4,968 nucleotides of DNA from a virus (taxonomy: Duplodnaviria > Heunggongvirae > Uroviricota > Caudoviricetes): IMG/VR virus record IMGVR_UViG_2711768067_000002, positions 1 to 4,968 of that record; one strand, given 5' to 3'. The position numbers and the translations under genes are program-made. This document shows, one piece after another, positions 1,901 through 3,744 of the stretch. The notes beneath the pieces were generated by a model that did not search any database, was not told the DNA's origin, and saw nothing but the letters and a program-made list of their open reading frames with translations. Position 1 is the stretch's first letter, and each line of letters starts with the position of its first letter.

Positions 1901-1928
1901 GCAAAGAAAAACCGGCGCTGAGGCCGGG
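1901..1928 (-). terminator. Intrinsic terminator ending the cI-cassette transcript (tImm-like)
   Basis: Minus strand CCGGCCTCAGCGCCGG hairpin (plus 1912..1927) followed by TTTTTCTTTGCC (plus 1901..1910), immediately after the stop of the 206 aa ORF (1929..1931). Confidence 0.6.
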
Positions 1929-2549
1929 TTAATGCTGGGGAGTGATTTTTTTGTTGTCTGTTGGCTGGGTATTTTGTGGCGGCGCTTGCAAAGTGGAAGG
2001 CTGTTGCAAAGGTGCGTGGTCTGACTTTAAAGCTGATACCAGCCCGGGAATCGCAACTATTACAGCGATAATGACACTAAAAATGGCTAATCGTATAGAA
2101 ATACCCGACTGAACACCACTAATTGCGGTATTAACCCCTGTTATTTGTCCTTGAATTCCTTCGAATCTCCCATTAATTGCTTTTAAATCGCCAGCAGCGC
2201 TATCCATTTTTCCATCGATCTTGGACGATAGAGAGCTTATGGCCGCATTAAGTGATGCAAATTGGACATTAACGCTTTCACGAGATAGAGCCATGTCAGC
2301 CCTAATGGAAGAAGCAATAGACTCCATCTCTGCTTTATTAGCAGCTAAGCGAGCATCAAGTTCCTCTCTGCTGATCGTTCCCACTTCTTCCTCCGTTTGT
2401 GGCGGTTTTATGTAATTATTTTGCACCTTGGTGGGAGAATTATCAAATTCAGCCTCAAAATCGGAACCGCCAACAACCTTCAACCTCCGGCTTTCAGATA
2501 TGTTGGTGTCTTGCTTTCCATGATTATTTAAATTGCTGTCGTCACTCAT
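1929..2549 (-). CDS. Hypothetical 206 aa protein with a polar N-terminus, a predicted helical/coiled region, one C-terminal transmembrane helix and a Pro/Gln-rich tail; distal gene of the cassette in the rexB slot
   Basis: ATG at 2549..2547 overlaps the upstream ORF's TGA in an ATGA arrangement (translational coupling). Hydrophobic stretch RLAIFSVIIAVIVAIPGLVSAL near the C-terminus; small-residue-rich repeats (INGRFEGIQGQITGVNTAISGVQSGIS) precede it. No resemblance to RexB (144 aa, multi-pass) as recalled. Confidence 0.75.
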   Translation of the reverse strand: MSDDSNLNNHGKQDTNISESRRLKVVGGSDFEAEFDNSPTKVQNNYIKPPQTEEEVGTISREELDARLAANKAEMESIASSIRADMALSRESVNVQFASLNAAISSLSSKIDGKMDSAAGDLKAINGRFEGIQGQITGVNTAISGVQSGISIRLAIFSVIIAVIVAIPGLVSALKSDHAPLQQPSTLQAPPQNTQPTDNKKITPQH

Positions 2550-2980
2550 AATAGCTCTACGGTGAAAAATGATTCATTTTTATGAAGTTCATTTTTAGGG
2601 TCTTCATTATCTTGCAATCTCCCTATAACACTATACAGCCCTTTAGCTGGGACCCTAATTTCTTTCAATGTTACTATTACCTGTCCGCCAACCCCTGTTT
2701 CAAAATGGCTATCTTTCGTATCGATGAAAAGTGAAACTGATTCCGAAGAGCCGTCAGGGAATTGAATTTCCTCACCTTTTTTTATAATTAGGTGCGCGGG
2801 GATTACCATAATACCCAAATTATATCTTGAATTTGGTTTCAACCCGATCATACCAACCCTGAAATCAATTGATAGCCGCGCAGGAAATTCATTGCATGTA
2901 AAATTAAGCGTCGGTTGGTTGGGTTCTTCGCTGCTATCAAATGGGGTTATAAAAGATATTCTTTCTAAATTAAGTGCCAT
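2546..2980 (-). CDS. Hypothetical ~144 aa soluble protein; proximal gene of the cassette in the rexA slot
   Basis: Preferred start is ATG at 2980..2978 with AGGAG 5 nt upstream (minus strand AGGAGAATTTATG), giving MALNLERISFITPFDSS.... The ORF-track start (GTG 3034 / ATG 3031 overlapping the cI stop) lacks a convincing SD but is not excluded. No transmembrane segment, no recognisable catalytic motif, no resemblance to RexA (279 aa) as recalled. Confidence 0.7.
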   Translation of the reverse strand: MALNLERISFITPFDSSEEPNQPTLNFTCNEFPARLSIDFRVGMIGLKPNSRYNLGIMVIPAHLIIKKGEEIQFPDGSSESVSLFIDTKDSHFETGVGGQVIVTLKEIRVPAKGLYSVIGRLQDNEDPKNELHKNESFFTVELL

Positions 2981-3030
2981 AAATTCTCCTGCATCGCTGT
3001 ATGCTCTACGAGCATCTCGGCGACTTATCA

Positions 3031-3744
3031 TCACCCAAACGTCTCTTCAGGCCACTGACTAGCGATAACTTTCCCCACAACGGAACAACTCTCATTGCAT
3101 GGGATCATTGGGTATTGTGGGTTTAGTGGTTGTAGGAACACCTGACCGCTATCCCTGATCAGTTTCTTGAAGGTAAACTCGTCACCACCAAGTCTGGCTA
3201 TGCAGAAATCACCAGGCTCAACAGTCTGCTCAGGGTCAACAAGAATTAACATCCCGTCAGGAAAGCTTGGCTTGTAGCCTGTTGGTGCGGTCATGGAATT
3301 ACCTTCAACCTCAAGCCAGAATGCAGAGCCACTGGCTTTTTTAGTTGTGCTTACCCATTTCTCCGCATCACTTTTGGTAAAGGTTCTAAGCTCAGGCGAG
3401 AACATCCCGGCCTGAACATGAGAAAAAACAGGGTACTCATACTCACTTCTAAGTGACGGCTGCATACTAACCGCTTCATACATCTCGTAGATTTCTCTGG
3501 CGATTGAAGGGCTAAATTCTTCAACGCTAACGTTGAGAATTTTTGCAAGCAATGCGGCGTTATAAGCATTTAATGCATTGATACCATTAAATAAAGCACC
3601 AACGCCTGACTGCCCCATCCCCATCTTGTCTGCGACAGATTCCTGAGATAAGCCAAGTTCATTTTTCTTTTTTTCATAAATAGCTTTAAGGCGACGTGCG
3701 TCCTCAAGCTGCTCTTGTGTTAACGGTTTCTTTTTTGCGCTCAT
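3031..3744 (-). CDS. cI: CI repressor (237 aa), lambda-type, with a few substitutions
   Basis: Protein [54 protein letters not shown]...[22 protein letters not shown] contains the lambda CI helix-turn-helix and the C-terminal autocleavage domain. The start codon abuts pRM (leaderless arrangement). About 6 differences from lambda CI as recalled (for example S3A, K70N). Confidence 0.95.

Follow-up and report, generated by a model that had tools for sequence, protein, structure and literature searches.

What has taken the place of rexA and rexB between the repressor gene cI and the terminator tImm of a lambda-immunity prophage, and how did the replacement come to end almost exactly at the stop codons that flank it? 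The question is raised by the IMG/VR virus record IMGVR_UViG_2711768067_000002 (positions 1 to 4,968). This whole stretch of 4,968 nucleotides (nt), hereafter the window, comes from a lambdoid E. coli prophage with lambda-type immunity, of which it is the immunity region. A preliminary description, made from the letters alone, proposed that a module had been exchanged there by recombination within the conserved cI 3' end and tImm, in a slot that is a hotspot for accessory cargo. We confirm that rexA and rexB are replaced by two unrelated genes with sharp borders. We further consider it highly probable that the interval is a passenger slot of the repressor operon, which cargo enters by rare joins, and from which it spreads by homologous exchange in the flanks; its present occupant is most likely exclusion- or abortive-infection-like. 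The features that matter for this argument are as follows (aa, amino acids; ORF, open reading frame):

1903–1928, minus strand: tImm, intrinsic terminator; a terminator-like site in a pattern scan, homologous to the annotated Timm of phages HK542 (1416–1441), HK244, mEp332, HK544 and CL707
1929–1931, minus strand: left junction, the TAA stop codon of the 206-aa ORF, aligned with the lambda rexB TAA
1929–2549, minus strand: 206-aa ORF, equivalent of HK542c104, PHROG 5820
2546–2980, minus strand: 144-aa ORF, equivalent of HK542c105, PHROG 5893
2981–3030, minus strand: 50-nt spacer specific to the cassette, from the cI stop to the start of the 144-aa ORF, with an AGGAG Shine-Dalgarno at 2988–2992, as read from the sequence
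3031–3036, minus strand: right junction, the cI stop codon TGA (3031–3033, TCA on the shown strand) and the last Gly codon GGG (3034–3036), from the alignment to lambda 37227
3031–3744, minus strand: cI repressor gene, 237 aa, lambda immunity type

As the lambda reference we used J02459 33800–39200 (locus L002 of our set). At the right, the preliminary description had placed the border of similarity at the cI stop codon, and it does lie exactly there (BLAST aligns window 3030–4968 with lambda 37226–39164 at 97.5%). The synonymous change that it reported in the last Gly codon is present as well: GGG in the window versus GGC in lambda, the C versus G at 3034 being the sole difference in the adjoining 80 nt of cI. 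At the left, the homology (window 1589–1931 to lambda 35496–35827, 88% with indels) includes the terminator hairpin and its flank, which had been described as shared; CCGGGTTA is common to both phages. The last matching letters are the TTA at 1929–1931, and the TAA of the 206-aa ORF indeed sits at the position of the rexB TAA (lambda 35825–35827). Plotted against lambda, identity along the window shows sharp breakpoints rather than the gradual divergence that would have spoken against an exchange: in a 100-nt profile it drops on both sides from 94–100% to no alignment within a few bases. Remnants of rexAB are absent from 1932–3030, where tblastn with RexA and RexB was empty at E ≤ 10 and blastn-short against rexAB found only exact words of at most 13 nt, which is the chance expectation. 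The two ORFs therefore have the marks of occupants of the rex slot: they lie between a lambda-type cI stop and tImm on the cI strand, the flanks are conserved, the interior is unrelated, and the breaks are sharp.

The same cassette (1929–3030) is already deposited in GenBank for HK542 (EF120458, JQ086373/NC_019769) and HK244 (EF120457), with 99.4% identity over 1102 nt; both records show two hypothetical proteins between cI and Timm (HK542c104/c105; HK244 04/05). These two records, together with those of mEp332, HK544 and CL707, stem from the work of Degnan et al. (2007; Mol Microbiol 64:232) on wild phages of lambda immunity. The HK542/HK244 cassette resembles that of the window in both ORFs, in its position between cI and Timm and in its right junction; it differs in having two copies of GTTAATGC instead of one and in its flanks, which are of HK542 type instead of mEp332 type.

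Do the cassette and its flanks share one history? We compared the window, HK542, HK244, mEp332 and lambda at informative sites. From 1929 to about 3118 the window is of HK542/HK244 type (99.4%), and it is identical to HK542 at every site up to 3129. Outside the cassette it is mEp332 and not HK542 that the window matches, at 39 of 40 informative sites in the left flank (1595–1891) and at 23 of 23 in the right flank (3130–3747). In the 100-nt profile the mEp332 flanks are 98–100% identical to those of the window and the HK542 flanks 86–95%. The mEp332 slot holds a different cargo from that of the window. Two crossover intervals are delimited by the informative sites:

1891–1929: left crossover interval, from mEp332-like to HK542-like, inside tImm
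3034–3130: right crossover interval, in the last approximately 100 nt of cI

The right interval narrows to 3118–3130 only if mEp332 represents the backbone exactly. The proposed exchange by recombination within the cI 3' end and tImm is thus supported, with the switches located inside both. With a cassette of HK542 type between flanks of mEp332 type, the window records a homologous exchange of cargo in the flanks. Elsewhere, two different cargoes (clusters 1 and 3, see below) follow one and the same 400-nt cI 3' haplotype, and the window's cargo is found behind at least four cI haplotypes.

Among 5426 complete E. coli genomes, 51 contain the cassette, in all cases on the chromosome and once per genome, and every locus examined is an immunity region. 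The repressor gene in front of it varies. Loci L007 and L008 have the cassette and tImm behind other LexA-family repressors (heteroimmune), with a 15–19-nt relic of the lambda cI 3' end, and the repressor gene of L009 is a hybrid, lambda-like no further than window position 3441. Altered copies also occur. In three genomes, NZ_CP031134, NZ_CP195467 and NZ_CP063473 (H37–H39, H71, H72), IS1 insertions lie inside the matched region. An internal deletion in the cassette of L009 has reduced the 206-aa ORF to a 104-aa remnant, and in L010 an 18-nt in-frame deletion yields a 200-aa version of it.

Cargoes and junctions of the cI–tImm slot

What else does this slot hold? We collected 80 IMG/VR loci with a cI at least 98% identical to that of the window and in 69 of them excised the stretch that begins with the Phe236 codon and runs to the tImm core; with the window and 8 reference loci this makes 78 intervals, in which the IMG/VR contigs are not independent samples. 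The catalogue of cI-to-tImm contents, which the preliminary description had called for, comprises at least 21 unrelated cargo clusters of 753–2095 nt. With so many unrelated cargoes behind an essentially identical cI, the view of the slot as a hotspot of accessory cargo is supported. The reference cargoes include one 345-aa ORF in mEp332, two ORFs in HK544 and one 301-aa ORF in CL707. Recognizable families among the clusters are the following:

Cluster 0: KilA-N (Pfam)
Cluster 5: NYN (Pfam)
CL707 / cluster 6: BstA (PADLOC, E 1e-105)
Cluster 7: DUF1828 (Pfam); PDC-M24B (PADLOC)
Clusters 8 and 19: ParA-like ATPase (Pfam)
Cluster 9: DUF3024 and a Ser/Thr kinase, PD-T4-6/Stk-like (Pfam; PADLOC)
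Cluster 10: P63C (Pfam)
Clusters 15 and 18: DUF6932 pair (Pfam)
Cluster 17: ClpP-like SDH protease (Pfam)
Cluster 20: DUF2335 (Pfam)

The junctions of all these cargoes obey one rule. In 21 of 21 clusters the first differing position is either the third base of the last cI Gly codon or the cI stop codon, and in 21 of 21 similarity returns at the ..CC just 5' of CGGCCTCAGCGCCGG, the base of the tImm stem. Seven combinations of Gly and stop codon occur (GGG TGA, GGA TAA, GGT TAA, GGC TGA, GGG TAA, GGG TAG and GGA TGA). CL707, with its BstA cargo, follows the same junction rule as the window.

The claim that the junctions coincide with flanking stop codons at both ends has to be amended in part. 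It holds at the right, where the cI stop is the border. At the left it holds in the window and fails as a general rule, being lineage-specific and tied to a single copy of GTTAATGC. HK542, HK244, L007, L008, L009, L059 and L081 read CCGGGTTAATGCGTTAATGCTGGGG at this junction, an 8-bp tandem repeat, and in these relatives the 206-aa ORF stops 8 nt beyond the rexB-stop position; the window, L010, L014, L016 and L018 have one copy of the 8 bp (comparison of window 1926–1936 with L001 1439–1457). The left TAA of the window coincides exactly because there is one rather than two copies of GTTAATGC. Slippage is the likely source of the difference in copy number. Read across the aligned sequences, the general rule at the left is no more than this: the foot of the tImm hairpin is where similarity ends.

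How much of this is new? The region from cI to N has been called a "hotspot of mosaic diversity" with rexAB or bstA (PMC8585504, citing Degnan et al. 2007), and the slot is treated as a mosaic or defense hotspot, again with reference to Degnan et al. (2007), in PMC8585504, PMC7067206 and bioRxiv 10.1101/2024.02.24.581848. The idea of a recombination hotspot between cI and N is therefore already published, and the junction pattern with its reading is at textbook level for lambdoid phages; our analysis mainly confirms the first reading of the sequence. What it adds is base-level proof that cassette and flanks have different histories, a junction catalogue of at least 21 cargoes, and the link between the left coincidence and the copy number of an 8-bp repeat. 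Rousset et al. (2022, PMC9122126) described comparable defense hotspots in P2-like phages and P4-like satellites, in which a fixed site with conserved bounding genes holds alternative, mostly defensive cargoes exchanged between relatives. These hotspots differ in phage family and bounding genes, and the cargo of the window lies inside the repressor transcription unit, bounded by a stop codon and a terminator.

Several intervals have additional structure next to the cI end. In clusters 8 and 10 (L026, L073) a G+C-rich hairpin with a T-run (AAAGGTCGCACAGAAGTGCGGCCTTTTTT) stands directly 3' of the cI stop, within the first 40 nt and before the ParA-like and P63C cargoes; it may act as a terminator or attenuator that separates cI from the cargo. 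Of this sequence after the stop, the spacer of the window shares only the first bases, TGATGAtAAGTCGC. A DUF3024 gene lies between the repressor gene and several different cargoes (L059, L081, L052, L040, L007, L008), among them the window's cargo in L059 and L081. In L059, L081, L052 and L040, which have a lambda-type cI, an 18-nt stretch of the cI 3' end, GAAGAGACGTTTGG[G/A]TGA, is repeated in direct orientation on either side of DUF3024; for L007 and L008 the copy on the downstream side alone is confirmed. The repeat looks like a boundary sequence that allows gain or loss of a sub-module.

The two cassette genes and their possible function

For the upstream ORF, ATG 2980 is the most likely start, giving 144 aa, because AGGAG stands 7 nt upstream, eight of nine homologue clusters measure 143–144 aa, and the PHROG 5893 profile begins at M19. 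The annotations of HK542 and HK244 place the start at the same Met. With this start, a 50-nt spacer would follow the cI stop and no gene would overlap cI. We set aside a 162-aa reading (from GTG 3034 or ATG 3031, with a TGATG overlap with cI) in view of the homologue lengths, the PHROG start and the Shine-Dalgarno. The TGA of the 144-aa ORF overlaps the ATG of the 206-aa ORF by 4 nt (ATGA at 2549–2546), which suggests that the pair is translationally coupled.

The 206-aa protein has a variable, disordered N-terminus, a conserved long helix (residues 61–139) with G-x6 periodicity, one predicted transmembrane helix (approximately 150–174) and then a Pro/Gln-rich tail. The long helix is probably a coiled coil. 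An AlphaFold2 model from a 22-sequence alignment contains one long helix and the transmembrane helix, with a mean predicted local distance difference test (pLDDT) score of 57.7. For the 144-aa protein the model (9-sequence alignment) is all-beta and unreliable, with a mean pLDDT of 48.8. A HMMER profile of the 144-aa family has only 24 matches among 1.84 billion representatives, and the long ones are immunoglobulin (Ig)-domain repeat proteins (He_PIG, Big_9, PKD, internalin Ig-like). These matches hint that the protein is probably all-beta with an Ig-like fold.

Searches of Pfam, NCBIfam and PADLOC gave nothing above threshold for either ORF, and no family of PADLOC-DB v2 matched at E ≤ 1. The only Pfam signal of the 206-aa ORF is the sub-threshold Baculo_PEP_C (20.8 bits versus a cut-off of 38), and neither XhlA (PF10779) nor a holin family matched it at gathering score. 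When PDB sequences were searched with both alignment profiles, only chance-level matches appeared (TRPM7, haemagglutinin, SmhB, apolipoprotein E; E 0.01–1). A similarity of the 206-aa protein to the alpha-pore-forming toxins MakE/SmhB was also considered; it is sub-threshold and we judged it compositional (coiled coil plus hydrophobic helix).

Homologues of both proteins are restricted to Enterobacterales. Citrobacter has both genes together behind a RacR-like repressor. In Yersinia a 97-aa ORF, behind an S24 repressor, precedes the homologue of the 206-aa gene. A scan of species-representative genomes with the 206-aa family gave one locus, in Xenorhabdus. Across the relatives in these three genera the genes remain a pair, in most cases beside a repressor gene. 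Related pairs, possibly all of a small soluble and a coiled-coil/transmembrane protein, recur in the slot in different combinations: PHROG 5893 with 5820 (the window), 5893 with 6136 (cluster 1), 26809 with 5820 (cluster 3) and 12039 with 12602 (HK544). Clusters 1–3, which hold the first three of these pairs, account for 25 of the 69 IMG/VR slots (36%), and the HK544 pair is absent from those 69.

How does the pair compare with characterized occupants? Lambda cI-rexA-rexB-tImm agrees with the window in slot, strand, number of genes, terminator, a last stop codon abutting the tImm stem, and the order of a soluble and then a membrane protein. RexB is a polytopic membrane protein with four transmembrane helices. 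The rexAB genes show no sequence similarity to the window's pair and differ in size and membrane topology; the cI-rexA spacer is 112 nt in lambda versus 50 nt in the window, in which a pLit-like internal promoter was not detected. The BstA locus of Salmonella prophage BTP1 (Owen et al. 2021, PMC8585504) is likewise cargo that the lysogen expresses and that directly follows the repressor gene, within the same mosaic region. BstA differs in being one protein only, of 301 aa and KilA-N type, to which an aba element belongs as its cognate; the two proteins of the window have no BstA match.

By analogy with RexA/RexB, we think it most likely that the two genes form an exclusion or abortive-infection module, expressed in the lysogen and made up of a soluble, cytoplasmic partner and an inner-membrane effector, because of its position, its architecture and the defense systems that occupy the same slot. 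It is tempting to go further and picture an undescribed two-component exclusion or abortive-infection system in which a small Ig-like sensor or adaptor works with a coiled-coil, single-pass membrane effector, drawn from a mix-and-match set of pairs; we offer this tentatively, as a proposal that may well be wrong. If true, such pairs would be very common, uncharacterized occupants of the lambda rex slot. The potential for discovery lies only in the cargo, a small phage-restricted two-gene module in a slot whose characterized occupants are defense systems.

Could the cargo serve some end other than defense against phages, by tuning the lysis-lysogeny switch, altering the envelope or acting in lysis in the manner of XhlA or a holin? 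We rather doubt it, while taking the idea seriously. RexA has been reported to bias the switch (bioRxiv 10.1101/2021.04.19.439022), the partner protein in cluster 1 has sub-threshold matches to XhlA/hemolysin (21.6 bits) and to holin-like families, and a defense role gains nothing from PADLOC, none of whose models matched. However, the validated occupants of the slot (RexAB, BstA and the Stk-like kinase) are abortive-infection or exclusion systems, and a lysis role fits poorly with expression from the repressor operon, by which the proteins would be made in the lysogen.

Origin and spread of the junctions

We envisage the history of the slot in two steps. New cargo would enter by rare illegitimate or microhomology joins, and selection would spare those in which cI is complete and the terminator hairpin intact. 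Each cargo type begins 0–3 nt from the cI stop and reaches the hairpin foot, and this would be because only such joins survive; several different terminal codons are also what independent illegitimate joins would leave after such filtering. Homologous recombination in the conserved flanks then carries installed cargo from one phage backbone to another, as the window shows.

The cargo would be transcribed together with cI in the lysogen, presumably from pRM (and from pRE), up to tImm. In lambda, tImm ends the pRM/pRE transcript. Indirectly consistent with co-transcription are the ATGA overlap, the 50-nt spacer with its Shine-Dalgarno after cI, a terminator-like hairpin with a U-run at the end of the unit (1927–1902 in the pattern scan) and the scarcity of internal promoters: none is convincing, and the 3 promoter-like sites in 1560–3900, versus 4.6 expected from shuffles, include pL and pR. 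The tImm hairpin, CCGGC-CTCAGC-GCCGG followed by UUUUUCUUU, is shared with lambda save one base, an A at 1911 (C to A) that is unique to the window. This A removes the outermost G-C pair, cuts the stem to 5 bp and lengthens the U-run.

Several observations weigh against this account or narrow it. Exchange in the flanks explains how cargo spreads and not how the first junctions came to lie at the stop codon and the terminator base, for which illegitimate recombination plus selection is most likely; this first step is one that we infer rather than observe. Some junctions are nested: lambda, HK544 and L071 have 31 nt in common after the cI stop, several cargoes have TGATGA..GGTCGC in common after the stop, and such short boundary sequences may guide joins as well. 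The three sites behind the interval 3118–3130 are private to mEp332, which makes 3034–3130 the safe interval; the exchange, which these sites do not date, could also have gone the other way, with mEp332 as the recombinant. With its 5-bp stem, the tImm of the window is weak (−10.2 kcal/mol, z = −1.06) and not distinguishable from shuffled sequence, and transcription of the cassette from pRM with termination at tImm is assumed from lambda. What we infer about cargo function stands beside proteins that have no Pfam, NCBIfam or PADLOC match above threshold and no PDB relatives, and whose models are poor (pLDDT 49 and 58). Finally, in Xenorhabdus anantnagensis (L098, 3355–4420) homologues of both genes lie side by side with no adjoining repressor gene; upstream of them stand a 656-aa ORF that is tape-measure-like and a small one that is lipoprotein-like. 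The gene pair therefore also travels outside immunity regions.

Is homologous exchange needed at all? Each junction could have been made in place by illegitimate recombination, with selection alone sharpening the borders and no homologous recombination in the history of the window. The seven Gly and stop codon combinations, found with different cargoes, are what independent joins would give, and the cargoes share no long homology. For the window, however, joining in place is contradicted by a cassette 99.4% identical to that of HK542 between flanks that are 5–14% away from HK542 and match mEp332 at 39/40 and 23/23 sites; the identical cI 3' haplotype found with two different cargoes speaks against it as well. 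We regard it as improbable for the window and as valid only for the origin of the first junction of each cargo type.

Insertion of the cassette as a mobile element (an insertion sequence, transposon or integron-like element) with specificity for the cI end is very improbable. It would suit the DUF3024 gene bracketed by the 18-nt cI-end repeat in L059, L081, L052 and L040, and the 8-bp tandem repeat at the tImm junction of most relatives. Yet the 8-bp repeat is at one end only, no terminal inverted repeats and no flanking direct repeats or duplication were found at 1929/3030, no transposase, integrase or recombinase domain is present in the cassette, and the cassette replaces rexAB instead of being added to it. 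Least credible of all is that rexA and rexB stayed in place and diverged into the two ORFs until they could no longer be recognized, since the shared position, strand, two-gene layout and soluble-before-membrane order are set against no similarity at E ≤ 10, no PADLOC match, lengths of 144 and 206 aa versus 279 and 144 aa, a single C-terminal transmembrane helix in the 206-aa protein versus a polytopic RexB, and flanks 94–100% identical, next to which divergence in place to zero within a few bases is not credible. We therefore retain rare joins followed by homologous exchange in the flanks.

Other features of the window

Around the slot the window has the usual genes and sites of a lambda immunity region:

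1178–1501, minus strand: N (from the ORF list)
Near 1683–1760: pL/oL
3751–3820: oR3-oR2-oR1 with pRM (leftward) and pR (rightward); coordinates carried over from the HK542 annotation with an ungapped offset of +479
3845–4045, plus strand: cro
4164–4457, plus strand: cII
From 4490: start of gene O

The pattern scan gave a pR-like site at 3792–3820. The genes cI, cro, cII, O and N and the operators oL and oR are 94–100% identical to lambda, and the window as a whole matches lambda and many lambdoid phages at 95–99% in pieces. No phage record covering 80% of the window was found; several E. coli chromosomal prophages are 99.2–99.7% identical to it over 78–4968. Rfam had no match at E ≤ 0.1 in the whole window. 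G+C content was considered as evidence for the cassette and left out, the difference between cassette (38–44%) and cI (42–49%) being too small to use.

Two small mosaic patches lie outside the slot. One, of 61 nt between the N start and nutL (1528–1588), is unlike lambda and matches HK542 and mEp332; the other, of 48 nt within cII (4319–4366), has only 83% identity to HK542, HK244 and HK544. Window 676–1185 looks like a second swapped slot. Similarity to lambda, which has sieB at the corresponding place, breaks off at 675 and returns at 1178, the N stop codon. The slot contains an ORF at 691–1185 on the plus strand (164 aa, PHROG 1244) with a CxxC...CxxC zinc-ribbon-like C-terminus, which is convergent with N and overlaps its 3' end.

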